DNA from: an uncultured bacterium | GTDB taxonomy: Bacteria > Zixibacteria > MSB-5A5 > UBA10806 | DNA length: 64,000 bases | Assembly: GCA_965602185.1 (NCBI GenBank) | Contig: CBFCYP010000001.1 | Span: 1,413-65,412 of the forward strand | Reading direction: 5' to 3' | Shown here: piece after piece, positions 20,263-46,838 of the stretch | Numbering within the stretch: the first letter of the stretch is position 1 | Layout: the number at the start of each line of letters is the position of its first letter | Translations under genes and position numbers: made by a program | The notes under the pieces: generated by a model | What the model was told of the DNA's origin: nothing | Database searches by the model: none | What the model saw: the letters and a program-made list of their open reading frames with translations, nothing else

Positions 20263-21447
20263 ATGGCCAATGATCAAACACCCTACTTCGCTACCAAAAT
20301 TGAATGTCCCGTTTGCGGCTACCTAAATTCGTTTGAAATTCTAAAGCAGGGCTCCTACACGGAATCCGGTAAGGATACCGATTTCGCTCCCACGGGCAGA
20401 GTCTGGAATAATCCCGCCTTTCAGAGATATAATCCCCTTCTGTATTTCACGGGCACCTGCGGGAATTGTTACTATACCCGTGAGATAAACTCCTCGTTCA
20501 GAAAATGGCAGAAGGATAACGGTTTTCGCACTTATCGGCTTCCGAATCAAAAAAAGGGACATTTGAAGGAAATTGCCGGAGAAGGTAGCGTAATAAAAGC
20601 TCTCGCAACAAATATCGATTATAAGAATTTTCCGAATGAATCAGCCATCATCAAACTGCTTATAGCCATTTACGACGAATTGCTTCTGGAGCGGCCAACA
20701 TCTCTTGACGTGGCCAGATATTACCTCCGTATCGCCTGGATATACCGCGAGATGTCAAGCGGGAAATGCGAAAATATTTCTCCGGCTCAAATAACCGTGA
20801 GCAATATTCAGCGTGAAATTAACCGGCTGAAAAAATATATCGATGGTTTGGGTGATCACATCGAACCTCTCTTGAATATGGTAAATGATGATCTGAAGCC
20901 GATGCTTTCTCAGGATCAATTTCCGGGCGGATTAACGTTCCGAATGGGAGAGGGGATCGATAGTATCTTTGGGTCATGGAGAGAGATCCAGGAGAATATC
21001 AACCGGATCGAATCAGAATTTAATATGGGGAAAGAAGAAATCTGCGATCATGAGAACGAGGATAAAGTCCAGACCGACTTCGGGGGATATCCCGCTTTTA
21101 ACGATTATCTGAGTAAAATTCGGGAAAGCTGGCTGGGCGTTCCGTTAACCGAATTCGGGTCTTTAGACTTCGCGCTGCAATACTATCTCAAGGCATACCA
21201 GAACAGCAAAGAAATCAAGCCGGGGCTCCAGCAGCTCCAGGCCTCATATGTGATCGCGGAGCTTTCAAGACGCGTGGGAAACAATAACCAGGCCATGGAA
21301 TATTTTAGGAATACCTCCAAACAAGCTCATGAGATGATGAATCGGAATAGAAACGATAAGACCGTTTTTGCAAACGCGCAAAAAATCTTCGAAATGTCGC
21401 TGGAACAGGCCCGACTTCTAAAAAAACCAGAGAAGGTGAAAAAATGA
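20263..21447 (+). CDS. Zinc-ribbon (CPVCG...CGNC) plus helical-repeat protein, DUF2225-like, hypothetical
   Basis: N-terminal four-Cys motif (ECPVCGY...TGTCGNCYY) and a C-terminal TPR-like helical region. Its stop overlaps the downstream PilZ gene start (ATGA). Confidence 0.55.
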   Translation: MANDQTPYFATKIECPVCGYLNSFEILKQGSYTESGKDTDFAPTGRVWNNPAFQRYNPLLYFTGTCGNCYYTREINSSFRKWQKDNGFRTYRLPNQKKGHLKEIAGEGSVIKALATNIDYKNFPNESAIIKLLIAIYDELLLERPTSLDVARYYLRIAWIYREMSSGKCENISPAQITVSNIQREINRLKKYIDGLGDHIEPLLNMVNDDLKPMLSQDQFPGGLTFRMGEGIDSIFGSWREIQENINRIESEFNMGKEEICDHENEDKVQTDFGGYPAFNDYLSKIRESWLGVPLTEFGSLDFALQYYLKAYQNSKEIKPGLQQLQASYVIAELSRRVGNNNQAMEYFRNTSKQAHEMMNRNRNDKTVFANAQKIFEMSLEQARLLKKPEKVKK

Positions 21448-22187
21448 AAAACCGCATCGGCGCAAAAAGCGACAATCTCGCCCTCTGGGACAGGTTGATC
21501 CTGACTCTAAAAAAAGACGACGGAAGATCTGAATTTATCAGCAGGGTGGAGAATAAAAAACGGAATTCATACGTTTTTGAAATGCCCGTCAGGCAAAGCG
21601 GTAAATGCAATTTACAAAAAGGAGATGTTGTGGAAGTCCGTTATAACAGGCGCGACGCCGCCTATACGTTCAAAGCGAGCATAAAGGACCTCTTTGTCGA
21701 CGACGTCGGATCGATCGAGGTGAAACGGGAAGGCGAAACCAGAAGGGAGCAGCGCCGAAAATATGTGAGGCTGAATATATCGGAGAGTATAAATTTCAGG
21801 ATATTGGAATCTCCCGAAAATGACGACGTCGGCTTGAGTCCTGAGTTCCAGGGATTGCTTTTAAACATTTCCGCCGGCGGTTTTCTTTTCGAGACGGAAA
21901 AAAAAGTACCGTCGGATTCCCTGCTCATAATTAAATTCAAGCTTAAGTATCATTATTCATTAGAAAACATACTCGCCATAGTCAAACGGTCGGAACAAAC
22001 CGGCGACGGTTTATTTCTGGTGGGATCGGAGTTTATTACCAAAGCCAATAAGGGCGATTTCGGCCTGGAGAGACTGGACGAATATCTTCCGCCCGGAACC
22101 GGAACATTTGATGAAAATCTCCAGAGGCTTATAGTCCAGTTCATTTACAATCAACAGGTGGAAATGCGTAAAGAGGGCAAGCTTTAG
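21444..22187 (+). CDS. ycgR: YcgR-like c-di-GMP-binding PilZ-domain protein (candidate flagellar brake)
   Basis: 247 aa. An N-terminal PilZN-like domain is followed by PilZ motifs RRKYVR (RxxxR) and NISAGG (D/NxSxGG). Located in the flagellar regulon. Confidence 0.75.
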   Translation: MKNRIGAKSDNLALWDRLILTLKKDDGRSEFISRVENKKRNSYVFEMPVRQSGKCNLQKGDVVEVRYNRRDAAYTFKASIKDLFVDDVGSIEVKREGETRREQRRKYVRLNISESINFRILESPENDDVGLSPEFQGLLLNISAGGFLFETEKKVPSDSLLIIKFKLKYHYSLENILAIVKRSEQTGDGLFLVGSEFITKANKGDFGLERLDEYLPPGTGTFDENLQRLIVQFIYNQQVEMRKEGKL

Positions 22188-23736: not shown

Positions 23737-25476
23737 TTGAGATATAAGATGAACTTGACGGGTGAGTTAATACGGGATTCTTCGGAAACGGTCAGGCCGG
23801 CCGCTTTCTTTACGCTGGATAAGAATTATTTTATCGGAAATATGGCCCAATACGGTTCCCTGTTTTGTGAATTCAATTGTATAAACGACCTTTTAAAAAA
23901 CAAAAGTTTCCTGCCTCTCGATAATCCCCATGTGAGGAACGCAATTAATAATGCGTTTAACGAAATGCCCTCGCAGGTGCGTTTCGAACATACAATTGGC
24001 GATAGGACATTTCATTTTGATTTATACTGCTTCCCGGAACTGGGGCAGGACAACTCGTCCATCGGCTGTTTTCTCGCCGATAGATGCCGCGACGAGGAAA
24101 CGGCAATATCGTTGCAGACGAAAGTCGACAGGCTCGATATTATCAATCAGGCCGTGAGAGCGTTTGCCGAGACAACCAATCTTAATGAAATTTTACGAAT
24201 AATTCTACTTGCGGTAACCTCCGGTCCCGGGCTCGGTTTTAACCGGGGATTCATTTTTTTATCCGATGAGTCCCGTACGTATCTTCACGGGTGTCTTGCT
24301 ACCGGCCCTTCCTCGCCTGCTGAAGCGGGCGAAATCTGGAAAAGTTTGTCTGAAAAATCCCTTTCCTTGGCCGAAATATTGCGTTTTTACAGAAGCGGGG
24401 AAAGCCCTTTTGACACCTATGTTAACCAGCTGGTAACGTCCTTGAAAATACCTCTTACCAAAAGCTCCAGTTTTTTGAAACGGTCTTATGAGGAAAGACG
24501 AGCTCTGGTTATCGATTCTGTTTCAAATCTAAATGAAGACGAAATATCCTTGAAGAAAAAATTGGAGGCCGAAAGTCTGGCCGTTGCCCCCTTGGTTTCA
24601 CGTGATTCGTGGCTGGGAGTTATCATAGCGGATAACCTTATCACTAATAAGCCGATCTCATCCTCGGATTTGCAGCTTCTGGAAATCTTCGCGCGCTATG
24701 CCTCGGACGCCATCGATAATACCCATCTATACGGCAGGCTCCAGAGAAAGATCGCGAAGCTTAAAGAGGCCAATGAAGAAATTATCAGGACCAGGGAGAA
24801 TCTAATCCGTTCGGAGAAATTAACGGGTATATCGAAAATGGCTCTGGAAGTGGCTCATGAGATTCGCAATCCTTTGACGGTGATCGGCGGTCATTCCAAC
24901 GCGAGGCTCAGAAAAATGAAGGATGATCCTGAAAACGAGAGAATTTATGGCATAATTTCCAAACAAACTGCCCGAATAGAAAACACTCTAAACCGTTTCT
25001 CCAGCATTATTTCCCTGAGCGAGAAAGAAGACGGCGAATTTAATATCGGCGACCTGGTTATAGAAACCCTCAGGACAATGACATCGATTAAATCGGAAAA
25101 GATGCCTATCGTTGACGTCGATGATAAGGCTAAGGACGGAAAGATATTTATCGATCAGGGTCTCTTTCACAAAGCCCTGATGATAATTATTAGAGAAGCG
25201 TCATTAATCGCGGGAGGATTGTCGAATCTCAGGTTGGAAATTAAAAAACGGCATAATTCCGCCATTATATTGATCGGCAGCGACGGACTATACCAAAAAT
25301 TCGCCCATAGTTTTTTTTATGCCATGCGTATCGGGCAGGATGAGTTGAAATCGCAGGAGATGTCGGTCGCCCTCGAGATAATAAAACATTACGGCGGGGA
25401 CCTGGGTATAGGCTCCCCGGAAATATCGAAGGGATGGCTGATCGTGGAATTCCCATTAATCAAGGAGGAAAAGTGA
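23737..25476 (+). CDS. Cytoplasmic GAF-domain sensor histidine kinase (HisKA H-box present; catalytic-domain motifs divergent)
   Basis: No TM segment. GAF region, then HisKA box EVAHEIRNPLTVIGGHS. The C-terminal ATPase-like region has a G2-like GGDLGIG, but the N-box Asn is not evident (ALMIIIREASL). Confidence 0.7.
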   Translation: MRYKMNLTGELIRDSSETVRPAAFFTLDKNYFIGNMAQYGSLFCEFNCINDLLKNKSFLPLDNPHVRNAINNAFNEMPSQVRFEHTIGDRTFHFDLYCFPELGQDNSSIGCFLADRCRDEETAISLQTKVDRLDIINQAVRAFAETTNLNEILRIILLAVTSGPGLGFNRGFIFLSDESRTYLHGCLATGPSSPAEAGEIWKSLSEKSLSLAEILRFYRSGESPFDTYVNQLVTSLKIPLTKSSSFLKRSYEERRALVIDSVSNLNEDEISLKKKLEAESLAVAPLVSRDSWLGVIIADNLITNKPISSSDLQLLEIFARYASDAIDNTHLYGRLQRKIAKLKEANEEIIRTRENLIRSEKLTGISKMALEVAHEIRNPLTVIGGHSNARLRKMKDDPENERIYGIISKQTARIENTLNRFSSIISLSEKEDGEFNIGDLVIETLRTMTSIKSEKMPIVDVDDKAKDGKIFIDQGLFHKALMIIIREASLIAGGLSNLRLEIKKRHNSAIILIGSDGLYQKFAHSFFYAMRIGQDELKSQEMSVALEIIKHYGGDLGIGSPEISKGWLIVEFPLIKEEK

Positions 25477-26565: not shown

Positions 26566-26663
26566 TTTGACGAAAAAGTAATTTCTATTTGATTTAGAAC
26601 GATAATAATAAAGAAGATATAAGTCCCTGCTAATATAATTTTTCAAATAAGGAGCGCGGCGCA

Positions 26664-27086
26664 ATGAAAGAATACGTGAATATTCTTATCGTGGAAGACG
26701 AAGCCATGATGCGGAATCTTTTATTGAAAATATTGGAATCGGAAGGTTATAAGATTACTCTTGCGTCTTCGGCGGCTGAGGCTCTCGATAAACTGGAATG
26801 TGAAAAATACGACCTGCTGTTATCCGACGTTAAAATGCCGGGAATGAACGGATTTGAATTGCTTGAGAAAGTGAAAAGCCAGTGGAATGATATGGCGGTT
26901 ATCGTAATGACGGGATATGGAGACGCCTACACTATCAAAGAGGCTCTGATGAAGGGAGCCGATGAATATCTGTCAAAGCCCTTTAAAAGCCATGAGGTTT
27001 CACTTATAGTCGAAAGGGCTTACTGGCGATTACTTTCGGCGAGAAATTCGGCTGAAAAATCAAAGCAACCGATAACGACACCGTAA
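26664..27086 (+). CDS. Single-domain response regulator receiver
   Basis: ILIVEDEAMMRN, phospho-acceptor LLLSDVKMPGMNG, T in VMTGYGD and K in SKPF. Confidence 0.85.
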   Translation: MKEYVNILIVEDEAMMRNLLLKILESEGYKITLASSAAEALDKLECEKYDLLLSDVKMPGMNGFELLEKVKSQWNDMAVIVMTGYGDAYTIKEALMKGADEYLSKPFKSHEVSLIVERAYWRLLSARNSAEKSKQPITTP

Positions 27087-32721: not shown

Positions 32722-34116
32722 ATGTATGGACCCAATGTAGGATTGGAAATTGGCAGGAGGGCTCTACTGGCGCAGCAGTTATCCCTTAACCTGACCGGAC
32801 ATAATATTGCCAACGTGAACACGCCCGGTTTCAGCCGTCAGGACGCGATATATTCGACAACAGCGCCCATGAAGTCGCTTTTCGGCCACGCCGGTACCGG
32901 CGTTAATATAGATGAGATCCGGCGGATAAGATCTGTTTTCCTCGATCAGCAATACAGAAGCGAATCGCATCGTCTGGGCAAATGGCAGTTCCTGGCTCGT
33001 ACCTGGCAGCAAATCGAGGGGATATACCAGGAGCCGGATGATACCGGTATGTCGGCGCAACTGGATAAATTCTGGAACTCCTGGCAGGATCTGGCCAATA
33101 ATCCCGAAAGCGAATCAGCGCGAGTGGCTTTAAGGGAACAGTCATCATTGCTCATAAATTCCTTTCATCAGCTTTCAACCCAGCTGAGCGATTTAAGAGA
33201 TTCGCTCGATGCCGATATTACGACTCTGGCGTCGCAGATCAATACGACCGCGGAACAGATTGCCGAACTCAACGGCAATATAAAGGCCGCCGAACTTACC
33301 GGACATTCGGCCAACGATTTGCGCGACAGACGAGATCACCTTGTCGATCAGCTTTCCATGTGGATCAACGTCAGCGTCCTCGAACAGCCGTCCGGGTCAT
33401 ATACCGTTCTGATGGGTGGAATGGCTCTGGTCGACGGTAACTCAAACCTCGAGCTCGGTATGGAGGTTGAATCCACCGGCTCAAACGTAACGCACAGGTT
33501 GTTTTTCAAAGGCACCGGCATCGATGTTTTAAATCCCGGAGGCGAGCTCGAAGGTATTCTTGAAGCTCGAGACCATCTCGTCATCGATCAGCAGGCCGAA
33601 CTGGATTTATTGGCGGTCGCGCTGGTGGAAGCGGTTAACAATATGCACCGTCAGGGTTACGGTCTGAACGGCGAGACCGGTATCGATTTCTTCGACCCCG
33701 ATACCACCGGCGCCGATGATATAAACCTGAATTATCCGATATTGACCGATGTGAATAACATCGCCGCCGGTCTTAACGGCGAAACCGGCGACAATGCGAA
33801 TGCCCTGGGTATCGCCGCGTTGAGAGATCGGCTCTTGATGAGAAACGGCGAGGCGACATTTAACGAATACTATAGTTCTCTGATCGGAAAGGTTGGCGTT
33901 AAGGCTAAAGAGGCCCAGAATCACGAGGCCAACCAGCTGGCGCTGTTATCACAAATAGACAATTCCAGGGAATCTTTAAGCGGCGTGTCCCTCGACGAGG
34001 AAATGACAAATATGATTATGTTTCAACACGCCTATGAAGCTGCCGCCCGGGTAATTAGCGTGATGGATTCGGCGTTAAACACTGTAATCAACGAGATGGG
34101 GCTGAGGAATTATTAA
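32722..34116 (+). CDS. flgK: Flagellar hook-associated protein 1 FlgK
   Basis: N-terminus LEIGRRALLAQQLSLNLTGHNIANVNTPGFSRQ; C-terminus MIMFQHAYEAAARVISVMDSALNTVINEMG. Confidence 0.92.
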   Translation: MYGPNVGLEIGRRALLAQQLSLNLTGHNIANVNTPGFSRQDAIYSTTAPMKSLFGHAGTGVNIDEIRRIRSVFLDQQYRSESHRLGKWQFLARTWQQIEGIYQEPDDTGMSAQLDKFWNSWQDLANNPESESARVALREQSSLLINSFHQLSTQLSDLRDSLDADITTLASQINTTAEQIAELNGNIKAAELTGHSANDLRDRRDHLVDQLSMWINVSVLEQPSGSYTVLMGGMALVDGNSNLELGMEVESTGSNVTHRLFFKGTGIDVLNPGGELEGILEARDHLVIDQQAELDLLAVALVEAVNNMHRQGYGLNGETGIDFFDPDTTGADDINLNYPILTDVNNIAAGLNGETGDNANALGIAALRDRLLMRNGEATFNEYYSSLIGKVGVKAKEAQNHEANQLALLSQIDNSRESLSGVSLDEEMTNMIMFQHAYEAAARVISVMDSALNTVINEMGLRNY

Positions 34117-34146
34117 TGTAAGTAATTCGGGGTCATGGAGGTCCCT

Positions 34147-34401
34147 ATGCTGGTATTGACAAGGAAGTCCGGAGAATCGATAGCGATTGGTAACGACATA
34201 AGGGTGACGATTCTGGGGATAAGCGGGAAACAGGCGAAAATCGGAATCTCCGCCCCGGAGAGAGTCCTCGTTTACAGGGAGGAAATTTTCAAGAAAATCC
34301 AGAGCGAAAATATTAAGGCCTCTATGTCGATTAAGGATGATTTGCAGGAATTAGCCACAATTATTAAAGCGAGAAAACGAAAAAACGATGGTGAAAAATA
34401 A
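34147..34401 (+). CDS. csrA: Carbon storage regulator CsrA (FliW-partnered type)
   Basis: [50 protein letters not shown] at 34147 with a GGAGG RBS; fliW lies downstream. Confidence 0.92.
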
Positions 34402-34598
34402 TGAATGCGGAAATTGAAAAATTTTATATATCTGAAAATTCGTATCCGAATAAAAAAGGGGATTACTGGCAGCATAAGTGCGGGTTATTTCATTGGCACA
34501 TTTCCGGGAGTAACGTGAGCCTGAGTTGCCAGGATCCGGATTTGGAGAAAATAACCTGGCCGAATATTGACAGGAAAGAGATACCCGGAGGACCGTAA
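34401..34598 (+). CDS. Hypothetical 65-aa Cys/His/Trp-rich protein translationally coupled between csrA and flgL
   Basis: TAATG overlaps at both ends (csrA stop/start, then stop/flgL start). Without it the csrA-flgL spacer would be 196 nt. No homologue recognised. Confidence 0.35.
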   Translation: MNAEIEKFYISENSYPNKKGDYWQHKCGLFHWHISGSNVSLSCQDPDLEKITWPNIDRKEIPGGP

Positions 34599-36514
34599 TG
34601 AGAATAACCTCAAATATGATAATGAACACGGTGACTCGAAATCTGGCGCTATCGCAATCGCGGTTCTTAAGGATTCAGACCATGGCCAGTTCGGGCAGGA
34701 GAATAAACAGGCCGTCCGACGATCCTATAGGAATAACCAAGGATCTCGGATTCAGATCCGATTTATCGGAGATATCCCAGTTCAGGAAAAATATCAATCA
34801 GGCTCTTTCCTGGTTTAATTTTTCCGACCAGGCCATGGGCAATATGAATGAGCTGATTTCCAGGGCCAAGGAACTGGCGGTTCAGTTTGCCAATGACACT
34901 TATGACCAGAACGCCCGGGCGGCCGGCGCCACCAATATCAGGGACGTTTTCGAACAGATAATCGAAGCCGCAAACACTCAATTCGAGGGTAATTATATAT
35001 TCTCCGGCACGAGAACCGACGTTTCTCCCTTTATGGTGCTTGCGATGGGAGTCGTATACCGGGGAGATTTTGAGCAGATTTCCCTTGAAACGGAATCATC
35101 CTCATATCTCGGAATAAATTCCATAGGTGCAGAATTTCTCACCGTGGCAAGTCGTACTTTGGGCGATGGGTATGATTTAAATCCCGGTATTCAACCGAAT
35201 CTCTGGCTTGATTATCTTCATGGGGGAAACGGTGTCGATCTGGGTGCGGGTCTTTTCAATGTCCGAACATTAAACGGTGAATATGCCATAGACGTATCGG
35301 CGGCAAGGAATATTCAGGATGTTCTCGACGCGTTAAACGGCGCCGGCATCCCGAATTTTAACGCCAGCATAAGCCTGACCGGAAACAGCATCGCTCTTGA
35401 GGATACATCAAACCATTTAATAAACGTCAACACCCCTCTTTCCATGCTCAACGGTGGATTGGGAGTCGATCAAACACCGGGCCTTATAAGGTTCGGCACC
35501 GGCGGCGGAGTGAGCGTGAACGTCGATATTTCCGGATCCGTCACTATCGGTGATGTTATAAACGCTATAAATACGCAACTGCCGGCGGGCGGGATAAACA
35601 ATGTTACAGCTTCGCTTCATCCGGATAAAAACGTGCTGGTTTTAAACGACAACAACGCTGCGCCACTCAATATCATGATCTCGGAGGGTTCGCCCGGAGG
35701 CCAGACAGCATCCGACCTTGGAATATTGGGCGAAATCGGAACCGTGATGGAGGGGGAAGACCTCGAACCGACTCATATACAGGTGGCTGAAAACGCGCCG
35801 GACGAGAATACTGCCAAATATCTGGGGCTTCTTGGCGAATCACAATACGAACAATATGTTGGAGAAGATCTTAATCCCGAACTGGCGTATTTCACCCTGC
35901 TTTCCTCTCTGAGATCCGGAATGGGATTTCCTCTGGGGAAAATCAGGATAGTCAACGGCGATCTGGTGAAGGACGTCGACTTAACGGCTCTGGGAAATGA
36001 TCCCAACGCCACCATAATGGACGTCATAAATCTGATCAACTCATCGGGAATAGAAGTTGAGGCCAGAATAAATGATCAGCATACCGGAATTCAGATTATT
36101 TCCAAAGTTGAAGATAGGTCGCTGATGGTAATCGAGGCGGACGGTGGCCAGACCGCGAAGGATCTCGGAATATTCGGATCGCCCGATATTCTGGGCAATC
36201 TGATGGTGTTAGAGAAGGCATTAGAAAACAACGATGTCGACGAGATAGGATTATGTCTGGAAACCTTCGATACCGCGCTGAATAAGGTGTCGATTGCACG
36301 AGCGGAGGTCGGTGCCCGGACAAACCGGGCCGACATGGCTTCATATCGTCAGTTAACTTTCGAATTACAGATTACCGAGCAACTGTCCAATATAGAAGAT
36401 GCCGATATTGCCAAGGTCATAACGGATCTGGCGTCAGCGGAAGCGGCATATCAGGCCGCTCTCGCGTCCGCAGCCAGATTGATTCAACCGTCTTTAATCA
36501 ATTTTCTTAGATAG
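34598..36514 (+). CDS. flgL: Flagellar hook-associated protein 3 FlgL, enlarged (638 aa)
   Basis: Flagellin-like N-terminus MRITSNMIMNTVTRNLALSQSRFLRIQTMASSGRRINRPSDDPIG and conserved C-terminal helices, with a large central insertion. Confidence 0.9.
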   Translation: MRITSNMIMNTVTRNLALSQSRFLRIQTMASSGRRINRPSDDPIGITKDLGFRSDLSEISQFRKNINQALSWFNFSDQAMGNMNELISRAKELAVQFANDTYDQNARAAGATNIRDVFEQIIEAANTQFEGNYIFSGTRTDVSPFMVLAMGVVYRGDFEQISLETESSSYLGINSIGAEFLTVASRTLGDGYDLNPGIQPNLWLDYLHGGNGVDLGAGLFNVRTLNGEYAIDVSAARNIQDVLDALNGAGIPNFNASISLTGNSIALEDTSNHLINVNTPLSMLNGGLGVDQTPGLIRFGTGGGVSVNVDISGSVTIGDVINAINTQLPAGGINNVTASLHPDKNVLVLNDNNAAPLNIMISEGSPGGQTASDLGILGEIGTVMEGEDLEPTHIQVAENAPDENTAKYLGLLGESQYEQYVGEDLNPELAYFTLLSSLRSGMGFPLGKIRIVNGDLVKDVDLTALGNDPNATIMDVINLINSSGIEVEARINDQHTGIQIISKVEDRSLMVIEADGGQTAKDLGIFGSPDILGNLMVLEKALENNDVDEIGLCLETFDTALNKVSIARAEVGARTNRADMASYRQLTFELQITEQLSNIEDADIAKVITDLASAEAAYQAALASAARLIQPSLINFLR

Positions 36515-36523: not shown

Positions 36524-36994
36524 TTGATCGCGGAGACATCGAGATTCGGTAAGATCGAACACGGAAAATCCGGGATTATCACCATGGTCAGAGGAATATT
36601 GGGCTTTGACTCATATATCAGGTTTATAACAGTAAGCTTGAAAGGACAGGAGCCTTTTAAATGGCTGCAATCCCTTGAAGACCCGGATCTGGCGTTTCTG
36701 ATGATTGATCCTCTTTTCTTTAAGCCCGATTATATTGTCGAAATAAATCCCAATGAACTGGTTATGCTGAAAACCAAAAGTATCGACGATATCGCTATTT
36801 TCGTTCTGGTGTCCATACCAAAAGGACAACCGGCATTGATGTCGGCCAACCTGCAGGCGCCTCTGGCTATTAATAAATCCAACATGAAGGCGGCGCAACT
36901 GGTTCTGGGGGAAAGCCATTACACCACGGATCACTCGATTTTTAAGGATCTGGAGCGGAGACTGGTCGAGACTTCAATGTCGGATCACGATTAA
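36524..36994 (+). CDS. fliW: Flagellar assembly factor FliW (CsrA antagonist)
   Basis: 156 aa; FliW-family sequence (GILGFDSYIRFITVSLKGQEPFKWLQSLEDPDLAFLMIDP). Confidence 0.85.
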   Translation: MIAETSRFGKIEHGKSGIITMVRGILGFDSYIRFITVSLKGQEPFKWLQSLEDPDLAFLMIDPLFFKPDYIVEINPNELVMLKTKSIDDIAIFVLVSIPKGQPALMSANLQAPLAINKSNMKAAQLVLGESHYTTDHSIFKDLERRLVETSMSDHD

Positions 36995-37115: not shown

Positions 37116-38828
37116 ATGCCGGAAGCAGTCGAAACAAAAGAAAAAAAACTCATTTCAAGGGACGAGCTGGCGAGACTCTTAGAAAATGAAGATTATTCGG
37201 AGGCCGAGGACGCGATCCATGCGCTTCTGGAACAATCCCCGGAAGATATTGAATTGTTGAACTCGCTGGGATCGATATACGCCCGGCGGGCGGATTATTT
37301 TAACGCCGAAAGTACGTTTCGGAACGTAATCGGCATTGATCCTGAATGCGGGGATGCTTACTACAACCTGGGCCTTGTTCACAGCAAACAGTCCCGCAGG
37401 ACCGAAGCCGTGGAAGATTTCCTTAAAGCGGTGGAGATTAATCCTCAAGACGCCGCGGCCCACAACGATCTCGGCGTGCTTTATCATTACCAGGGGAAAA
37501 CGCATCTGGCCAAAGGTCATTTCATAAAAGCCCTGGAAGGCAATATCCTTTATAAAAGGGCCTTGATGAACCTCTTCGAGGTCTGCTTCGATGCTGATTC
37601 TTATTCTGAAGGATTGGCTTGGGTCGAGAAGTTTCTAAACGCCTCCACCGGGAGCAACAATTCAGACGATACGAATCATGATATAAATCTCGTTTCGAAA
37701 GAAAACTCTATAATAGAAAAAGCGAATTCGGTTCAAATCGAAGTAAAAACGAAATCCGAACAAAAGCTGTCCCCGGGCGCGCTTAAACTCACCAAAAGAT
37801 CAAACTCGAAAGCGGATGATATTTTCTTAAAACATGTCCCCGAAGAACTGCGCGAGAAGAAAACGGGGAAGAATATAGCCATAATCGCCGATTTCAATAT
37901 CGCCGGGCAGCTGTCTTTGCTGTTCAGGATGATTAACAGGTATACGATTCACAAGGCCCGCATGGTAATAATCCAGGACGATTATCTTACTTATGACAGG
38001 GATCTGATCCTCTCCCGGGACGGCGAAAAAGGCCATAAAGAAGCATTGGATATTGTCGAACATGCGGACTTCTATCATATGGGAAGATTTCCCAAGCCTG
38101 TTGAAAGCGTAAACTGGGAAGAACACCTGAAACCGGATAATTCTCTTATACAATATTACGGCTCCGAGATAAGAACCAACTCGGTTCAATTGTACAGGTG
38201 GCACACTCAGAACAGAATTCTCGGGCTTTCGTGCTGGGATTATACCATGCTGGAAAACGCGCCGTTTTTCTACCATACCAATATCATGTGTGATTTATCG
38301 AGAATAAAACAATGCTCCGAGCCTACCGATACAATCAGGATCTGCCACCCGCCCACCAATCGCCAGTTTAAAAAAACCGATCTCTTTCTCTCCGTCGTCG
38401 AGAAGCTCAAAAAGAAAAATTATCCCTTTGAGGTGGAGTTGATAGAACGTAAATCAAACGAGGAATGCCTGGATATAAAAAGCCGCTGTCACATGACCTA
38501 TGATCAGATCTCCGTCGGTATTTACGGTTTATCCGCCATCGAGTCCATGGCCGCGGGCCACGCCGTCCTGTGCGGGATTTCGAACTTCGCCTCCAGCTAT
38601 CATCCGGATAATCCCGTCGTTTACGTCACCGAAGAGAATCTATATGACAGGCTGGAATACCTCCTCAGAAACAAAGAGGAGATTACCCGTATCGGAAACG
38701 CGGGCAAGATCTGGGCCAGAACTCATCATGATCCCATGAAACTCATAAGGCAATATGTCTGGATATACGACCTGGTGATGAACGGACACAGGATTGTGGA
38801 TGACCGCGATATGTTTCTTCTAACATAG
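37116..38828 (+). CDS. TPR-repeat protein with a C-terminal GT-B-like glycosyltransferase domain
   Basis: N-terminal TPR repeats (AYYNLGLVHSKQSRRTEAVEDFLKAVEINPQDAAAHNDLGVLY). The C-terminal region carries a GT1/GT4-like motif (GLSAIESMAAGHAVLCG). Confidence 0.5.
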   Translation: MPEAVETKEKKLISRDELARLLENEDYSEAEDAIHALLEQSPEDIELLNSLGSIYARRADYFNAESTFRNVIGIDPECGDAYYNLGLVHSKQSRRTEAVEDFLKAVEINPQDAAAHNDLGVLYHYQGKTHLAKGHFIKALEGNILYKRALMNLFEVCFDADSYSEGLAWVEKFLNASTGSNNSDDTNHDINLVSKENSIIEKANSVQIEVKTKSEQKLSPGALKLTKRSNSKADDIFLKHVPEELREKKTGKNIAIIADFNIAGQLSLLFRMINRYTIHKARMVIIQDDYLTYDRDLILSRDGEKGHKEALDIVEHADFYHMGRFPKPVESVNWEEHLKPDNSLIQYYGSEIRTNSVQLYRWHTQNRILGLSCWDYTMLENAPFFYHTNIMCDLSRIKQCSEPTDTIRICHPPTNRQFKKTDLFLSVVEKLKKKNYPFEVELIERKSNEECLDIKSRCHMTYDQISVGIYGLSAIESMAAGHAVLCGISNFASSYHPDNPVVYVTEENLYDRLEYLLRNKEEITRIGNAGKIWARTHHDPMKLIRQYVWIYDLVMNGHRIVDDRDMFLLT

Positions 38829-38838
38829 GGAGAATGAC

Positions 38839-39831
38839 GTGATAAAAGGTAAAAAGATATTTCTATCCGGGGGCGCCGGCTTTATAGGTTCCGCTCTCAT
38901 CGCCCGGCTGATCGATCATAATGAGATTGTAATATACGACACCTACGCGCGCCACAGCCTGAACGGCAGAAGATTCGAAAAACATCCCAATCTCACCTCC
39001 TGCCGCGGCGACATTCTCGATTTCAAAAACATTAAGAAACATATTGACGGCACTAATATTGTCATACATCTCGCGGCCATCGCCGGTATAGATACCGTAA
39101 TAAAATCCCCCGTAAATACCATGCGGGTAAACATGATCGGCACCTCCAATATGCTGGAGGCGGCTTCGGGACTTACATCGCTTGAGCGATTCGTCGATTT
39201 TTCCACGTCGGAGGTTTTCGGATCGTATGCTTATAGATCCGAAGAGGGAGACTCGACGTCGCTGGGCGCGGTGGGAAACGCCCGCTGGACCTACGCCGTC
39301 TCGAAACTCGCCGGGGAGCACCTTTCCTACAGTTATTACAAAGAAAAGAATATCCCCACGACGACCATACGGCCATTTAATATTTATGGCCCCGGACAGG
39401 TCGGCGAAGGCGCCGTACATCATTTTATTACCAGGGCGTTGAAGGGCGAAGATCTTATAATCAGGGGCAACGGCGATCAAATCAGGTCATGGTGTTATAT
39501 TGACGATATCGTGGACGCCATCCTGGCGGTTCTTGAGAATGACGGAGCCGTCGGAGAGTGCTTCAATATAGGAAATCCCCGCGGCACGGTTACCATTTAT
39601 GGTTTGGCGCTGGCCGCTATCAGGGTGACCTATTCCAAATCTAAAATCGTCTTTGTTGACAAGGATGTAGTCGACGTCGAGCTGAGGATTCCCAATATAG
39701 ATAAGGCCAGGTCCATCCTCGGTTTTCAGCCCGGGGTGGATCTCGAGGAGGGTTTAAAATTAACAGCCGATTGGTATTATGACAGAATTCATTCGAATAC
39801 CGCTTTCGAAGCCAGCCTTGCTGGATGCTGA
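38839..39831 (+). CDS. NAD-dependent sugar epimerase/dehydratase (extended SDR)
   Basis: Rossmann motif GGAGFIGSALIARL and catalytic YAVSK (YxxxK). Confidence 0.85.
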   Translation: MIKGKKIFLSGGAGFIGSALIARLIDHNEIVIYDTYARHSLNGRRFEKHPNLTSCRGDILDFKNIKKHIDGTNIVIHLAAIAGIDTVIKSPVNTMRVNMIGTSNMLEAASGLTSLERFVDFSTSEVFGSYAYRSEEGDSTSLGAVGNARWTYAVSKLAGEHLSYSYYKEKNIPTTTIRPFNIYGPGQVGEGAVHHFITRALKGEDLIIRGNGDQIRSWCYIDDIVDAILAVLENDGAVGECFNIGNPRGTVTIYGLALAAIRVTYSKSKIVFVDKDVVDVELRIPNIDKARSILGFQPGVDLEEGLKLTADWYYDRIHSNTAFEASLAGC

Positions 39832-40930
39832 TATTGAGTCAGCGGCAAAGAGTATGAAATCGGGCCGGCTGGTCTGCGGCCGGATGGTTGAAACATTCGA
39901 ACGGCAACTGGCCACATATCTAAAGGTTCGCTATGCGGTTTGCGTTTCATCCGGTACCGCCGCCCTGCATCTCGGTTTGCTCGCCCTGGGTATCGGGCCG
40001 GGCGATGACGTTATCGTGCCGGCTTTCAGTTACCCCGCCAGCGCCAATGCCGTGGAGATCTTAGGCGCCAGACCGGTTTTTATCGATTCCGAGCCGAACG
40101 GCTTTAATATCGACATAAGCAGAATTGAAAACAGCATCACCTCCCGCACAATGGCCTTGATGATTGTTCATAATTTTGGATGGCCGGTTGAGATAAATAG
40201 AATTCGCGCCCTGTCCGCCAAATATGATATCCCCGTAATCGAGGACGCCGCCTGCGCGCTGGGTTCTTCTATAGCGGGCGTCAGGTGCGGAAACCTCGGA
40301 AGATTGGCCGTTTTCAGCTTTCACCCCAGAAAGATTCTGACCACCGGCGAGGGGGGAGCGGTGGTTACCGACGATTTCGAACTTGCCGAAAAGATAAAAA
40401 GGCTGCGTAATCATGGTCAGGATTTCTCCCATGGCGTCGATTTTGTTATGCCGGGATTTAATTATAGAATGACGGAATTTCAGGCCGCTATGGGAGTTTC
40501 GCAGATGAAGCGTTATAATACAACCCTGCGGGAGCGGATAACGGCCGCCGATTTTTACAATAAAAATCTAGCGGATATGGATTGTATACGTCCCTGTTTG
40601 CCTCAAGCGAACCGCAAACTGAATTATCAGACATATATTGCCTTTATTCCGGGCGGTAATAGAGATGAAATTATTGATCATTTGAGAGAATATGATATCG
40701 AGGCCGGCATCGGAACCTATTCCATACCCCATACAGCCTATTATTCGAATAAATACGGCATTGAAGAATCCCGTTACCCGGAATCGTTGAGCGCGTTCGA
40801 AAACATCATGAGCTTGCCATTGTATAACGGCATCACCATGGATGAACAAAACCGTGTAATTGAAATACTTAAAAAGTATAAAGCCGAAAAAAAAGGATCT
40901 CGGATTAAACAAACCGTGGAATCATCATGA
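39779..40930 (+). CDS. DegT/DnrJ/EryC1-family PLP-dependent sugar aminotransferase
   Basis: IPLSKPALLDADIESAAKSMKSGRLVCGRMVETFERQLATYL...SSGTAALHLGL and a typical fold length. Overlaps the upstream SDR gene by 52 nt. Confidence 0.8.
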   Translation: MTEFIRIPLSKPALLDADIESAAKSMKSGRLVCGRMVETFERQLATYLKVRYAVCVSSGTAALHLGLLALGIGPGDDVIVPAFSYPASANAVEILGARPVFIDSEPNGFNIDISRIENSITSRTMALMIVHNFGWPVEINRIRALSAKYDIPVIEDAACALGSSIAGVRCGNLGRLAVFSFHPRKILTTGEGGAVVTDDFELAEKIKRLRNHGQDFSHGVDFVMPGFNYRMTEFQAAMGVSQMKRYNTTLRERITAADFYNKNLADMDCIRPCLPQANRKLNYQTYIAFIPGGNRDEIIDHLREYDIEAGIGTYSIPHTAYYSNKYGIEESRYPESLSAFENIMSLPLYNGITMDEQNRVIEILKKYKAEKKGSRIKQTVESS

Positions 40931-40940
40931 AAGGGACATT

Positions 40941-41531
40941 ATGAATAACACCACCCGGTTTAATGAAATCGGTAAGAACACGCAACCGGCATCTACGGGA
41001 AAATTGTCGGATTTGCAAAAAATATTAAAACTGGCCGCTAACAGTTTCGGCAAAGAAAAATATTCATTGACTATTGATTATTGTAGAAAAGCGGTAAACG
41101 CTGTTGACGGAACCGATCAACATAAACTGGCTGCAGAAGCATATTATATCTGGTGTCTGTCATGCTTTAAAATGAATAAATATGAGGACGCCAGAAAGGT
41201 ATGTTATGAAGCGCGGCTGAAACTGGGCAATTACCTCGATCTGGTTTATTTTGAGATTTTAATAGCGGCCGTTAACGGAGAAATTGACAGGATTCCGAAA
41301 TTCGCAAAAAGCTATATAGAGATTTACGAAGCCGCCGGAGACAAATTCAATCCTTTAAAAGAGAAGACCCACGATAGAATCGGCGAAGTCATGTTGATGA
41401 GTGGTCAGGCTCTCGAACAGGTGCAGAAGAAATCAGAAGCTCTGGATATTTATAAAAAATATTTATCTAAATTCCCCGATGATGTCCCCATAAAAGGACG
41501 GGTCGAAGTTCTGGCAAATCAAATAAACTGA
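40941..41531 (+). CDS. Helical-repeat hypothetical protein, paralogous to the N-terminal module of the downstream TPR-GT2 protein
   Basis: ARLKLGNYLDLVYFEILIA aligns with ARHIFGNYLDACFLEFNIY in the next gene. The ATG at 40941 is preferred over 40860, which would overlap the aminotransferase by 70 nt. Confidence 0.45.
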   Translation: MNNTTRFNEIGKNTQPASTGKLSDLQKILKLAANSFGKEKYSLTIDYCRKAVNAVDGTDQHKLAAEAYYIWCLSCFKMNKYEDARKVCYEARLKLGNYLDLVYFEILIAAVNGEIDRIPKFAKSYIEIYEAAGDKFNPLKEKTHDRIGEVMLMSGQALEQVQKKSEALDIYKKYLSKFPDDVPIKGRVEVLANQIN

Positions 41532-41552
41532 TCATAAGGATAATTTAAGCAG

Positions 41553-44360
41553 ATGGGTAAAAAGAAAAAAACGGATAGGAATAAAACATCTTTTAAAATA
41601 AAAGAACTCTCGCATCTTGAAATAAACGCGGCGGCGACGGGCATGACCGTCAACCCGCATAAAAATTATAATGATATAATTAAAAAAGCGGAAAAATCCG
41701 GCCCTAAACAGGATCTGGCGGCCGGATATTTTGGCCTGGTATTATCCCTGGTCGAAAAGGGAGAGTTTGAAGAGGCTCTGAATAATCTGAATAAAGCCCG
41801 CCATATTTTTGGCAATTATCTGGATGCCTGTTTTCTTGAATTCAACATATATTATAAACGATCCGAATATGAAAAATCCCTGAAAGCGGGGGAGGAGTAT
41901 CTGAAAATAAGGGAGAGTTGCGACCCTCTGAAAGACGCCCATTTGAGTCGGTCCTATAACAGCTACGCCGACGTCCTGTGGGTACTTTCGGATTCGGCGC
42001 GCCGAACGCTCGATTTCAAGAAATCGTTGCGGTATCAGCGGGAGGCCGTATCGCTTCATCCTGAAAATCATTTCTGGCGCATAATATATGCCAGCAACCT
42101 CCAGAAAGATGATTACCTCGATGACGCCATATCTGTAATTGATGAAGGGATTGAGCTGTTTCCCTATGAGGTCGGTTTAAAAAACGCCAAAGCGCTGGTT
42201 TATGGAGATGCGGAGAAATTTGATGAGGCGCTCACGATCCTGGATGAAATCATCGCGGTAAATCCGAAAGACGTAGACGCATTTGTAAATCGGGGCGTGG
42301 TTCTGGAGAAAATGGGTGATTATACAGCCGCGGAAGCCTGTTTCAAAAAAGCCCTGAAAATCGATCCTCGGCATGAAATTGCCAATAGTAATTTAATAAA
42401 GCTGAAAGAGACTATTGATGATAAACCTCAGAAAATTTCTCTTTGTATGATTGTTAAAAACGAGGAGAAATTTCTGCCCGGTTGCCTGGAATCCGCGAAA
42501 GGACTTGCGGACGAATTAATCGTTGTCGACACCGGATCTACGGATCCTACTATGGATATCGCCAGGAAATATGGCGCGATAGTATATGAGCATCCCTGGC
42601 AGAACGATTTTTCCTACCATAGAAATCAATCCATAGACTACGCCACCGGAGACTGGATATTGATCCTGGACGCCGATGAAGAACTGGATCCGTCGGAGCA
42701 CAATATGATCCGTGGCGCCGTTCGTCGTAAAGATATCGACGCGGTATCTTTTGTCGTATACAACAAAATTCAAGGCGGCCGTACCGGATTTTTGAACTCC
42801 CACAGGCTATTCAGAAATAAAAAGGAATATCGCTATTCGGGAATTGTCCATAATCAACTGGTAATGGACGGCATAACTCTATCGACACAACTGAAAGTTT
42901 ATCATCACGGTTACGGTCTTTCGGACGAGCAGATGAAGGCCAAAGGGAAGAGAACCGAAAAACTCCTTAAAGAGCAATTGAAGGAAAATCCCGATAACGC
43001 TTTCGCGCATTTTAACCTGGCGCAAATATATCGCGGGCTCGCCGAGCCGGAGAAAAGCCTTGAGCACGCCCGAAGGGTAATTGAAATATTAAGCCCGGAT
43101 AATGTCGACCGCAGGCATGTTTACGTAATGGCGCTGGATCAGATCGGCTGCGCATACGTCGGACTCGACAATCACGAAAAAGCCAAAGAATATTTTTATA
43201 AGGCTCTTGAGATCAAAGAAGATTATCTCGATCCACTGTTCAATCTGGGCTACGTCTTTTCAAAACAGTGTAATTATGATAAAGCCGATGAGCTTTTCTT
43301 GCGGTATTTGAAAGTACGGGGAAACTTCTCGGAGCATCGTGAATGGATGGGATTGATATTAAATAATCTTAACAGTCATTTCGCGGTTTATTACGGGCTG
43401 GGGCTCTCTCAATATTTCAGGAATAACATCGCTAAAGCCCTGGAGTATTTCCATAAAGTTATTGAGGAAGTAGGAGATTTCGAATATACGCAACATCTTA
43501 TCGCGCGATGTTACAGGCAGAAAAAACAGTTTGATAGGGTCGTCTTTCATTGCGGCAAAGCCATAGAAAACGGACATGAGGATTCCGAAATTTATGTTCT
43601 TCTTGGCGAGGCACATCTTAATCTCGGCAACCATAAGGAGGCGACCGAAAGCTTTGAAAAAGCTCTGCGATATGATGATTCCGGCAACTCCTCGCTTCTG
43701 GGACTGGCGGGAGCGGCATCGCTCGAAGGGGATTTAAAAAAAGCTTCCGAAGCGGTTGACAGGGCTTTGAAAAATACTCCCAACTCACCCCAGGCTTTGG
43801 CGGCCAAGGGAGAATTACTGTACCATTCCAAAAGTTTCATATCGGCCGCGGAAAAATACCGGGAGCAATCCAGGGTATCTCCGGGCGATCCCGCAGCGCT
43901 GAACAACCTGGGAAACTGCTTTTTTAAACAACAGAATTACTCCTCTGCCGAACAATTTTACCGTAGAACCCTGAAATTGTCTTCGGATTTTGCGCTGGCT
44001 TATCGAAATCTCGCCGTCTGCCTCATGAAGCAGAATAAATTTGACGAGTCCACCGCTTATCTGGAAAAATACCTGGAATGTTTCCCGAATGATCCCGAAG
44101 CATACGCCACGCTAGGCGATATTTATTATAACGCCAAAAATTACTGGAAGGCCATCGGGCGTTACGAAAAATATGTCGCGGCGTATCCCGAACAACATGA
44201 TGCCATCTTACGGCTTGCGGACTGCTACTTTAATCTGGGCAAACTCGATTCGGCGAAAATGGGGTATAGAGCGGTTTTGCGATCAAATCCCGATAACAAA
44301 ATCGCAAAGAATCGGCTGGAAGAAATAGCTCGATTTACGGAATCTGTTGAATCGCAATAA
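41553..44360 (+). CDS. Large TPR - GT2 glycosyltransferase - TPR fusion protein (935 aa)
   Basis: Central GT-A/GT2 domain (ISLCMIVKNEEKFLPGCLESAKGLADELIVVDTGSTDPT...DWILILDADEEL, with a DxD motif) flanked by many TPR repeats. Confidence 0.75.
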   Translation: MGKKKKTDRNKTSFKIKELSHLEINAAATGMTVNPHKNYNDIIKKAEKSGPKQDLAAGYFGLVLSLVEKGEFEEALNNLNKARHIFGNYLDACFLEFNIYYKRSEYEKSLKAGEEYLKIRESCDPLKDAHLSRSYNSYADVLWVLSDSARRTLDFKKSLRYQREAVSLHPENHFWRIIYASNLQKDDYLDDAISVIDEGIELFPYEVGLKNAKALVYGDAEKFDEALTILDEIIAVNPKDVDAFVNRGVVLEKMGDYTAAEACFKKALKIDPRHEIANSNLIKLKETIDDKPQKISLCMIVKNEEKFLPGCLESAKGLADELIVVDTGSTDPTMDIARKYGAIVYEHPWQNDFSYHRNQSIDYATGDWILILDADEELDPSEHNMIRGAVRRKDIDAVSFVVYNKIQGGRTGFLNSHRLFRNKKEYRYSGIVHNQLVMDGITLSTQLKVYHHGYGLSDEQMKAKGKRTEKLLKEQLKENPDNAFAHFNLAQIYRGLAEPEKSLEHARRVIEILSPDNVDRRHVYVMALDQIGCAYVGLDNHEKAKEYFYKALEIKEDYLDPLFNLGYVFSKQCNYDKADELFLRYLKVRGNFSEHREWMGLILNNLNSHFAVYYGLGLSQYFRNNIAKALEYFHKVIEEVGDFEYTQHLIARCYRQKKQFDRVVFHCGKAIENGHEDSEIYVLLGEAHLNLGNHKEATESFEKALRYDDSGNSSLLGLAGAASLEGDLKKASEAVDRALKNTPNSPQALAAKGELLYHSKSFISAAEKYREQSRVSPGDPAALNNLGNCFFKQQNYSSAEQFYRRTLKLSSDFALAYRNLAVCLMKQNKFDESTAYLEKYLECFPNDPEAYATLGDIYYNAKNYWKAIGRYEKYVAAYPEQHDAILRLADCYFNLGKLDSAKMGYRAVLRSNPDNKIAKNRLEEIARFTESVESQ

Positions 44361-44419: not shown

Positions 44420-44582
44420 TAGATTTCAGAAGATCTAAATATCTATCAGACATAGGTCATCTTCTCCAAGGGGGTGAGCGGATTACAGTTAGGCGAAATG
44501 ATCAGAAAATGCAATAAGCATGATAATTAACAATAAAATGTTAACAGAAGGGACGTTAGCATAATTTCAAGGAGGAAGTTAA

Positions 44583-46838
44583 ATGGCACTAAGAATTAAC
44601 CACAACATCACGGCGTTGGATGCCTGGCGTAATTTGACGATTACGACCAACAAGATGTCCAGGACGATGGAGAAACTGTCGTCAGGTTTCCGTATCAATA
44701 AGGCAGCCGATGATCCGGCCGGGTTGGTTATATCCGAGCAGTTCCGCGCTCAGATCGCCGGGCTGAATCGCGCCGTACAGAACTCAGAGGTTTCGATCAA
44801 TATGATCCAGACCGCTGAGGGAGCCCTCAACGAGATTAACAACCTGCTTATCGGTATGAGGGAATTGGCCATTCACGCCGCTAACGAGGGTGTCAATGAC
44901 GACAACCAGTTAGCTGCTGACCAGGCTGAAATCACCAACGCGATTCGTACTATCGACAGAATCTCTACCAACACTCAATACGGCACGAAGAAATTGCTCG
45001 ACGGCTCAGCGGCCAACGTAGCGGCCATCACCACCGCCAATGTTTCCGGACTGACAGTTACGGAATCGAATTTAAGCGATGGCGTTCACAGCACTACATC
45101 TGTTATGCTGACCGATTCGTCCGCCACTCTCGACGTTTCCAGTCTTGGGTTGAGCACCCCCACGGGTTCCTGGAATCTGGCCGGCGGCGTACACAATCTC
45201 GACGTTATCCAGGCTTCATCAGGCGCGGTTAAGACGGGTGAGGCTATAACCGCTCTCGACGCCTGGGGTAATGGCATCTCATTAACAGGTACAGCCGCTT
45301 CGATTCGCGAAGCATATGTCCGGGGCGCCACGAACTTCACGGCCCTGGCCAACAACAACCAGTACACCATTACATTCCAGCTCAACTTCCAGGAGGCCGG
45401 AAACAACGCCGTTGGTATGCAGACTCTTACCATCAGAACCGATGCCGTCGCGTCCGGTGATCTGGCCAACAATATCGCTTCGAGGCTGAATACAGCCATC
45501 AACTCAAACACCTATCTGGCCGGTAAGCTTCAGGCCACCACTACCCTCGGCGCACCCGACGCCATTCGCGTCAGGACAACCCAGGAAGGCACCAACTACT
45601 CGCTGGCCGTTGGCACCATCACCTCGACAAACGCGACAGTGACCGCCGGTCTTTCCACTTTGCAGAGCCAGAATGATCGCGGACGTTCTCACAATCAGAT
45701 TTCGGTTACGGCTCAATTTGCCTCCAGCTCAACTCTGGTTGACGCTTTCACCAAAACCGCCACCTTCGCTATTGGTAGCGGAACGTTTTCAACGCTTTCA
45801 GCGTTGGCCGCCACAATTAATGGCAAGATGGCTTTGGCCGCCAACTTCGGTACTTTTAGCGATACGGCTGTCGGTCAGGCGAACAAGGTCTACGCGACGG
45901 TTGTTACCGAAGGCGGACAGAGCAAACTGAGATTTTACACCATGGACGAAGGCTCGAAGTTCTCATTGAGGCTGAATATGACCGGAACCGGCACTTCAAC
46001 GGCTCTTTTCAACTCCATAGGAATGACGGTCGACCAGATCGCGAACAAGGGCCTTGACGCCATCGTAAGATTCGACGGTTACAACAACTCGATAAACGAT
46101 GTTCGTTACTTCTACACCGCCGCCTCTTATTCCAATGAGGATCAGACGCTCTATACCAGCGCGGACGCCAATACCCGCGGCTCTGTAACCATGACAGCGG
46201 CTCCGGCCCAGACTAATGGTGGAATCAACATTGGTAATATGTTGCTTACTGTCAAAGCCCGCACCTTCTCGGTCAGGCTTGACGGCGGCACCGAAGAGAT
46301 CGTTACGGCCGGTAAAGAAACAACCGTCTTCAACTCACAGAGAGATGAATGGGTTAAGATGCGCCTCTCGCTGAAATCCGATGGCGGCACCGAGCAGCTA
46401 TACGTTACCGACAGAAGCCTCGTCTTCCAGATCGGCGCCAATGTCGGGCAAACCGCCAAGATTGCGATCAGTAATCTCTCAGCATCATATCTCGGCCAGA
46501 ACCTCGATAGCAATATATTCTCGAGCCTTGCCGAAATCGATGTTACCACGGCCCAGGGCGCTCAGGATTCCCAGAACATTATTGACGCGGCCATTAACCA
46601 GGTTACCAATATCAGAGGAACCCTGGGATCCTTCCAGAAGAATACCCTGGAATCCAACCTGACCAACCTCAGAATCGCCGCTCAGAACCTGACAGCCTCC
46701 GAATCCAATATCCGCGACACCGATATGGCCAGAGAGATGTCCGAATTCGTCAAACACCAGATACTGATGCAGGCCGGTACTGCCATGCTCGCGCAGGGCA
46801 ACCAGCTCCCGCAGGTTGTGCTTTCACTGTTCGGCTAA
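44583..46838 (+). CDS. fliC: Flagellin, giant (751 aa) with a Thr/Ser/Ala/Asn-rich central region
   Basis: N-terminal D0/D1 (MALRINHNITALDAWRNL...AADDPAGLVISEQFRAQIAGLNRAVQN); C-terminus LRIAAQNLTASESNIRDTDMAREMSEFVKHQILMQAGTAMLAQGNQLPQVVLSLFG. AAGGAGGAA RBS. Confidence 0.93.
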   Translation: MALRINHNITALDAWRNLTITTNKMSRTMEKLSSGFRINKAADDPAGLVISEQFRAQIAGLNRAVQNSEVSINMIQTAEGALNEINNLLIGMRELAIHAANEGVNDDNQLAADQAEITNAIRTIDRISTNTQYGTKKLLDGSAANVAAITTANVSGLTVTESNLSDGVHSTTSVMLTDSSATLDVSSLGLSTPTGSWNLAGGVHNLDVIQASSGAVKTGEAITALDAWGNGISLTGTAASIREAYVRGATNFTALANNNQYTITFQLNFQEAGNNAVGMQTLTIRTDAVASGDLANNIASRLNTAINSNTYLAGKLQATTTLGAPDAIRVRTTQEGTNYSLAVGTITSTNATVTAGLSTLQSQNDRGRSHNQISVTAQFASSSTLVDAFTKTATFAIGSGTFSTLSALAATINGKMALAANFGTFSDTAVGQANKVYATVVTEGGQSKLRFYTMDEGSKFSLRLNMTGTGTSTALFNSIGMTVDQIANKGLDAIVRFDGYNNSINDVRYFYTAASYSNEDQTLYTSADANTRGSVTMTAAPAQTNGGINIGNMLLTVKARTFSVRLDGGTEEIVTAGKETTVFNSQRDEWVKMRLSLKSDGGTEQLYVTDRSLVFQIGANVGQTAKIAISNLSASYLGQNLDSNIFSSLAEIDVTTAQGAQDSQNIIDAAINQVTNIRGTLGSFQKNTLESNLTNLRIAAQNLTASESNIRDTDMAREMSEFVKHQILMQAGTAMLAQGNQLPQVVLSLFG

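Follow-up and report, generated by a model that had tools for sequence, protein, structure and literature searches.

CsrA is among the most widespread post-transcriptional regulators of bacteria, and its flagellar role together with FliW is thought to be ancestral. In Bacillus subtilis and Campylobacter jejuni, FliW antagonizes CsrA and flagellin titrates FliW; in B. subtilis, csrA follows fliW. In enteropathogenic E. coli, CsrA is bound and antagonized by CesT, a type III secretion chaperone that is larger and dimeric. To our knowledge, FliW and CesT are the known protein antagonists of CsrA, and we know of no CsrA-FliW module that includes a third small protein. The partner switch among FliW, CsrA, and flagellin has been described in B. 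subtilis and C. jejuni (PMC4894983).

Much of this arrangement can be recognized in the window (i.e., the whole stretch of 64,000 nucleotides analyzed here), in which csrA and fliW cluster with a flagellin gene whose leader carries GGA over the Shine-Dalgarno (SD) sequence. Unlike in the described switch, the gene order is flgK-csrA-X-flgL-fliW, which puts csrA and a small gene, referred to here as gene X, between flgK and flgL. Gene X lies within the module and is translationally tied to csrA. What is new here is a late flagellar operon of the CsrA-FliW type that also encodes a conserved orphan mini-protein, translationally coupled to its neighbors; in the literature, we found no small protein between csrA and flgL and nothing on the flagella of Zixibacteria.

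Gene order and junctions around csrA

The region of the window from ~27 kb to 37 kb is a single, densely packed plus-strand flagellar cluster with the order flgF, flgG, flgA, flgH, flgI, flgJ, flgN, flgK, csrA, X, flgL, and fliW (features close to gene X are given in Table 1). Downstream from fliW there are TPR/glycosyltransferase and sugar-modification genes, followed by the flagellin gene (44583..46838), fliD, and fliS. Pfam and NCBIfam matches in the window to CsrA, FliW, FlgL, FlgK, FlgN, flagellin, FliD, and FliS place csrA and fliW in a cluster with late flagellar genes. In addition to its Pfam match, the csrA product scores 82.6 bits with TIGR00202 and 88.6 bits with NF002469, and the flgL product carries both Flagellin_N and Flagellin_C domains (Pfam). 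No promoter- or terminator-like site was found in the csrA-flgL interval.

The position most likely to be the csrA start is 34147 (MLVLTRK). The mechanically defined ORF opens at ATG 34135 (MEVPM...), and the conserved MLVLTRK N terminus begins at 34147, with a GGAGG at 34138-34142, 5 nt before it. Gene callers use the MLVLTRK start (giving 84 aa) in two of the relatives (L002 and L003).

Table 1. Genes and translation signals close to gene X (positions are counted from the first base of the window)
Feature	Position	Strand	Description
flgK	32722..34116	+	Directly 5' of csrA; Pfam FlgK_D1 6e-66
csrA	34147..34401	+	84 aa from the MLVLTRK start; Pfam CsrA 4.8e-24
GGTGA, weak SD-like element	34390..34394	+	6 nt before the X start; not conserved in relatives
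TAATG, csrA stop / X start	34399..34403	+	Stop TAA 34399-34401 shares its last A with ATG 34401-34403
Gene X	34401..34598	+	65 aa, conserved small protein, core residues ~22-55; ORF plus homologs at the same position
GGAGG, flgL SD	34587..34591	+	Within the final X codons; encodes Gly-Gly of PGGP
TAATG, X stop / flgL start	34596..34600	+	Stop TAA 34596-34598 shares its last A with ATG 34598-34600
flgL, hook-filament junction protein	34598..36514	+	638 aa; TIGR02550 255.9 bits vs. cutoff 127.2
fliW	36524..36994	+	156 aa, TTG start, AGGAGG upstream; Pfam FliW 1.1e-34, NCBIfam FliW models

A preliminary description of this DNA had reported a 65-aa ORF joined by a TAATG to both csrA and flgL. The coordinates and quoted sequence of that ORF match the DNA, as do both junctions, at each of which a single shared base can be read directly from the sequence. 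It had also raised the question of a GGAGG within the 3' end of csrA; that motif is absent, and only the GGTGA is present there. The original observation is thus partly confirmed, being right about the ORF and both junctions and wrong about the ribosome binding site and, as detailed below, the number of Cys residues.

Comparison of loci indicates how the junctions vary. In 12 of the 15 loci, the X start and the csrA stop overlap by 1, 4 (ATGA/GTGA), or 17 nt; in the remaining three, the X start is located 7-8 nt beyond the stop. The sequence upstream of the X start varies between lineages, with no strong SD for X, and GGAGG-type SDs precede csrA, flgL, fliW, and fliC. Lack of an SD is also seen for other coupled genes of the operon, in the flgI/flgJ and flgN/flgK pairs, in which flgJ and flgK are joined to their upstream neighbors in a similar way. 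At its other end, X either shares 1 or 4 nt (ATGA) with the flgL start or is followed by a spacer of 15-17 nt, and in five loci the flgL SD sits in this spacer, just past the X stop. The GGAGG before flgL is invariant across the aligned loci (10 of 10), and the loci inspected separately have GGGGAG (L013), AGAGGAG (L014), or GGAGG (L016). The C-terminal Gly-Gly, Gly-Glu, or Gly-Arg of many X members is in fact the GGAGG-type flgL SD translated in the X frame. Overall, the start of X is tied to the csrA stop codon, and at its 3' end X runs over the flgL SD or stops right next to it. These features are those of coupled small ORFs (ATGA, TAATG), which X resembles in its 1- or 4-nt overlaps with both neighbors and its weak SD; the same type of junction also occurs at flgI/flgJ of the window operon.

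Conservation of gene X and character of its product

An ORF of 57-68 aa is present between csrA and flgL in all related contigs found. The sequences came from two metagenome contigs (near-identical or 78% identical), five genome loci, contigs recovered with the family profile, and HMMER hits, and they amount to 13 different sequences from 17 or more contigs, of which three come from metagenome-assembled genomes (MAGs) labeled Candidatus Zixiibacteriota. The distant members were recovered by a full HMMER profile search of 1.84 billion representative proteins, and their contigs are likewise ordered flgK-csrA-X-flgL. A scan for FlgL with one genome per species yielded five close loci, of which three are in MAGs labeled Candidatus Zixiibacteriota; loci with this label include two complete chromosomes (CP070742 and CP070813), and the FlgL identities are 93%, 86%, and 70%. 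A metagenome scan using the X alignment returned a single locus, 100% identical. The ORF had been described as unannotated, which is correct only in the sense that it carries no name: the exact protein has already been gene-called on nine contigs in public collections, each time without one. All recovered occurrences of X are in Zixibacteria-type flgN-flgK-csrA-X-flgL-fliW operons, either in Candidatus Zixiibacteriota MAGs or on unclassified contigs.

When the region is shuffled with its dinucleotides preserved, 1.6% of the shuffles have an open frame of the length of X, so the ORF by itself is suggestive rather than decisive. Identity to the window copy in distant relatives is 23-46% for X and 63-77% for CsrA, and the X frame is never interrupted; frame-disrupting indels, the possibility of which had been raised in the preliminary description, are absent, with the frame intact in 13 diverged homologs. 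The dN/dS ratio, also suggested there as a check, is below 1 in close pairs (0.12-0.36 for X, compared with 0.09-0.19 for csrA and 0.08-0.10 for flgL). Differences in X between the window and locus L001 fall at codon positions 1, 2, and 3 in numbers of 5, 7, and 18, and in a six-frame comparison only the X frame is both stop-free and rich in synonymous changes. In the DNA alignment, synonymous codon variants are seen at conserved Ile, Gly, Val, Ser, and Lys positions. X is under purifying selection as a protein and is very probably a real, conserved protein-coding gene.

Its codon-usage score is +5.3 in frame 0, versus -24 and -26 in the other two frames. This value is above those of all off-frame windows, yet it is in the first percentile of in-frame windows of real genes, and X is a compositionally atypical gene. 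We also considered an antisense ORF of 92 aa (34351..34629, minus strand) that covers X and is open in L003 and L004. Its changes include, for example, one synonymous against 35 nonsynonymous, the pattern of a shadow of X and not of a gene.

In two of the loci, L010 (3813-6464) and L013 (5009-6443), from GCA_975958835.1 and GCA_964503405.1, csrA, X, and fliW are intact and the large flagellar genes are severely shortened or missing. Their flgL encodes 79-88 aa, in which ~30 aa of the N terminus run straight into ~50 aa of the C terminus. The flgK gene encodes 146 aa in L010 and is absent from L013, and other large flagellar genes of L010 are present as fragments only (ORFs of 124 aa for a rod protein and 81 aa for an SLT domain). 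The shortened genes could be an assembly artifact or genuine internal deletions.

The family alignment shows that W32 and W53 are invariant and that W23, I34, V39, and P54 are nearly so. The motif can be written in short form as W-x8-W-x-I-[ST]-x4-V ... I-x-W-P, and approximately, in a fuller form, as W-[QK]-[HD]-x6-W-x-[IL]-[ST]-x4-V-[STD] ... [DE]-K-[IV]-x-W-P. The window copy has three Trp, the three His that had been counted previously, and two Cys (C27 and C43) rather than the three reported. The protein is hydrophilic (GRAVY -0.5 to -0.9), with no transmembrane segment, and is read as cytoplasmic on that basis. Its pI is 4.8-5.8 in the clade of the window and in L005, and about 10 (up to 10.1) in the L006/L007 clade; the change is carried mostly by the variable N- and C-terminal tails, and the conserved core is unchanged. 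The N-terminal third is variable and predicted to be disordered. An AlphaFold model of low confidence (pLDDT 65; 73-81 in the core) has a helix at about residues 18-26, a hairpin of strands 30-35 and 38-43, and, at 51-53, a short third strand. When the model was recomputed from a more diverse alignment, confidence fell (pLDDT 52), and of these elements the helix and the hairpin (30-43) alone reappeared.

Pfam and NCBIfam scans of seven X members gave no match above threshold, a sequence profile search of the PDB with X returned only chance matches to IL-12 beta (E about 0.4), and fold searches of the PDB found no match. The search of 1.84 billion proteins returned only homologs of the same size, plus tandem-repeat proteins that were judged spurious. 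The latter are long proteins (P0011-P0013, P0015, P0018, and P0020-P0023; 221-2880 aa), each matched in three to nine stretches, and were rejected as homologs of X. On reading, P0011, P0021, and P0023 proved to be tandem repeats like "RWISSRRMSLTG..." that look like translated repeats; the remaining multi-stretch matches were judged to be tandem repeats too, being taken as the same as these three. Because no known relatives emerged, X is considered an orphan family.

Twenty-one residues separate W32 from W53-P54, which fall on predicted strands 1 and 3 of a small sheet, and this W-x20-W-P spacing recalls that of a WW domain; no profile match at E up to 1 and no fold match to that domain was obtained for X. 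The segment "VSLSC...ITW" resembles the B and C strands of an Ig domain, and Pfam Ig_5 gave 14.5 bits against a cutoff of 27.3 (E 0.05), with weak matches in four of seven X members (best E 0.011). We attribute both likenesses to chance, given the sub-threshold scores, the lack of conservation of Cys, and the fold searches without a match. The tetrapeptide "DPDL" is common to X and FliW and is also ascribed to chance, as X has no Pfam FliW match and no similarity to the FliW family (hhalign probability 0.5%). It is unlikely that X is a FlgM anti-sigma-28 factor, because none of the seven members has a Pfam or NCBIfam FlgM match and the predicted core is a beta-hairpin; moreover, another ORF of the window (50363-50833) is the one whose C terminus resembles FlgM by eye.

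Possible roles of gene X

The preliminary interpretation had two parts, namely that X is a genuine coupled gene in a csrA/flgL/fliW flagellar operon, and that it encodes a small metal-binding protein. The first part is upheld, with the identity of the neighboring genes established by Pfam and NCBIfam; the second is not, so that the interpretation as a whole is partly supported. The reading that we prefer is that X is a lineage-specific cytoplasmic accessory of the CsrA-FliW control module, and it was chosen as the best explanation because X is coupled within the CsrA-FliW checkpoint locus. Translation of X would occur mainly by termination-reinitiation, by ribosomes that have just come off csrA. 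If ribosomes terminating on csrA translate X, then X output would track CsrA, and ribosomes ending X would be passed on to the flgL initiation region. X would most likely use its Trp-rich beta-hairpin core to bind CsrA or the CsrA-FliW complex, and so modulate the availability of CsrA. From adjacency and coupling, we put the probability that X acts on CsrA/FliW in this way at roughly one in three (0.35). CesT, a secretion-linked protein distinct from FliW, already offers an example of CsrA control by direct binding, the kind of activity proposed for X. It differs from X in that no similarity of sequence or fold was detected between them, X being a protein of 57-68 aa with a predicted helix and beta-hairpin. 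The C-terminal tail of CsrA reads as basic in both X clades, while the net charge of X flips, which argues against a simple electrostatic interaction of X with the CsrA tail. The structure prediction is weak and offers no functional clue.

The metal-binding reading of the preliminary description treated X as a small Cys/His protein, and the window copy does have two Cys and three His within residues 25-43. In homologs, however, C27 is replaced by T, A, G, or others and C43 by G, A, or V; H25, H31, and H33 vary (D, Q, E, R, K, or N); and the L006 copy has no Cys whatsoever. As there is no Cys or His among the invariant or nearly invariant columns, this reading is rejected as scarcely credible. 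It is also very improbable that the stretch is a non-coding flgL leader or a CsrA-binding RNA element in which the ORF is incidental. GGA motifs are approximately twofold enriched in X (nine in 198 nt vs. 24 per kb in the operon), and the single-sequence fold of X is slightly more stable than those of shuffles (z = -1.7). Much of the enrichment comes from Gly codons and the flgL SD, the RNAalifold consensus of ten orthologous regions is negligible (-2.5 kcal/mol), and Rfam (E up to 10) yielded a single lncRNA match, attributable to chance and well under its gathering score. There is no conserved RNA structure in the X region, and the retention of the frame in the 13 diverged homologs, together with codon-periodic substitutions and dN/dS below 1, largely refutes a non-coding interpretation. 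The odds are somewhat less long, but still heavily adverse, for a coupling ORF of which only the act of translation matters, the peptide itself being functionless. Ribosomes would then travel ~200 nt from csrA to reach the flgL SD, and might free this SD from CsrA or RNA structure. The weak SD of X itself, its poor codon usage, the same abundance of GGA motifs, and the position of its 3' end, on or right next to the flgL SD (GGAGG in most loci), are all as expected from such an ORF. What sets X apart from a pure coupling ORF or leader peptide is that its protein sequence is itself conserved: Its amino acids are under purifying selection, and Trp, Ile, Val, and Pro are kept invariant or nearly so at 23-46% identity, with synonymous codon variants. 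Protein-level conservation thus disfavors a pure spacer ORF, and flgL, moreover, has a strong SD of its own.

Adjacency and coupling fit a role directed at FlgL equally well. X is always directly upstream of flgL, overlapping its start or SD, so the protein might be a specific escort, an export pilot, or a factor for hook-filament junction stoichiometry that is made just before FlgL; FlgL is unusually long here (638 aa), and the variable N-terminal third of X, predicted to be disordered, would be in keeping with such a role. A FlgN chaperone is already encoded two genes upstream, and in established systems FlgN serves both FlgK and FlgL. Furthermore, X and flgL are separated by a 15-17 nt spacer in five loci, in which flgL has a strong SD of its own, and X has no strong SD at its start. 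Given these points, we regard action on FlgL as distinctly unlikely. X could also be a small protein whose flagellar role has nothing to do with CsrA or FlgL (e.g., cargo of the flagellar secretion system, or a minor component of flagellar structure or assembly), or one that works outside the flagellum altogether. We take this possibility more seriously, although still with doubt. The absence of homology to anything known, the hydrophilic character without a transmembrane segment, and the variable, disordered N terminus would all suit it; against it, X lies next to csrA and flgL without exception in the contigs found, which points to a role tied to these neighbors.

The accessory role at CsrA-FliW can also be put in a stronger form, in which X is a new third protein component of the ancient CsrA-FliW checkpoint, Trp-rich and stoichiometric with CsrA, that binds CsrA or CsrA-FliW and links CsrA activity to FlgL assembly or export, which would place a further checkpoint ahead of flagellin synthesis. 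We consider this form unlikely, at perhaps one chance in several. If true, X would represent a new class of protein regulator of CsrA, beside FliW and CesT. If X is merely a lineage-specific accessory, the finding is a modest one: another orphan family of small proteins in a flagellar operon. X is a concrete candidate for an additional part of the CsrA circuit and one that can be tested at little cost, as its 65 aa can be synthesized and its partners are easily expressed, and it is conserved in every relative found, including MAGs of a poorly studied candidate phylum. It also illustrates how comparative genomics can validate a small ORF that was called purely from sequence.

Signaling, sugar-modification, and flagellin genes in the flanking regions

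Upstream of flgF, the region of the window from 20263 to 27086 encodes a PilZ/YcgR-like protein (21444..22187), GAF-domain proteins that include a GAF-HisKA protein (23737..25476), and three stand-alone response-regulator receiver proteins. Together these genes form a signaling cluster joined to the flagellar operon. The interval from fliW to the flagellin gene (37116-44360) encodes TPR/glycosyltransferase-like proteins of 570 aa and 935 aa and also contains a sugar 4,6-dehydratase-like gene (38839..39831) and one for a PseC/LegC-like aminotransferase (39779..40930). The gene content of this interval suggests glycosylation of flagellin.

Directly after fliS, and with a one-base overlap with its stop, there is an ORF of 146 aa (49877-50317) with a weak FlgN-like Pfam match (E 0.0014), which may encode a FliT-like export chaperone. 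Beyond it, an ORF of 156 aa (50363-50833) has no Pfam match at E up to 0.01, and its C terminus (KVRQKIADGYYDTPEFIERLAEKLIEKF) appears FlgM-like by eye.

The flagellin gene encodes 751 aa. By eye, a sigma-28-like promoter can be placed ahead of it, with TAAA at 44392-44395, 16 nt, and then GTCGATTA at 44412-44419. In this region (44392-44585 of the window), the leader contains GGA motifs, one of them over the SD (caAGGAGGAag), and on these sequence features it is probably the canonical CsrA target of the organism from which the window derives.
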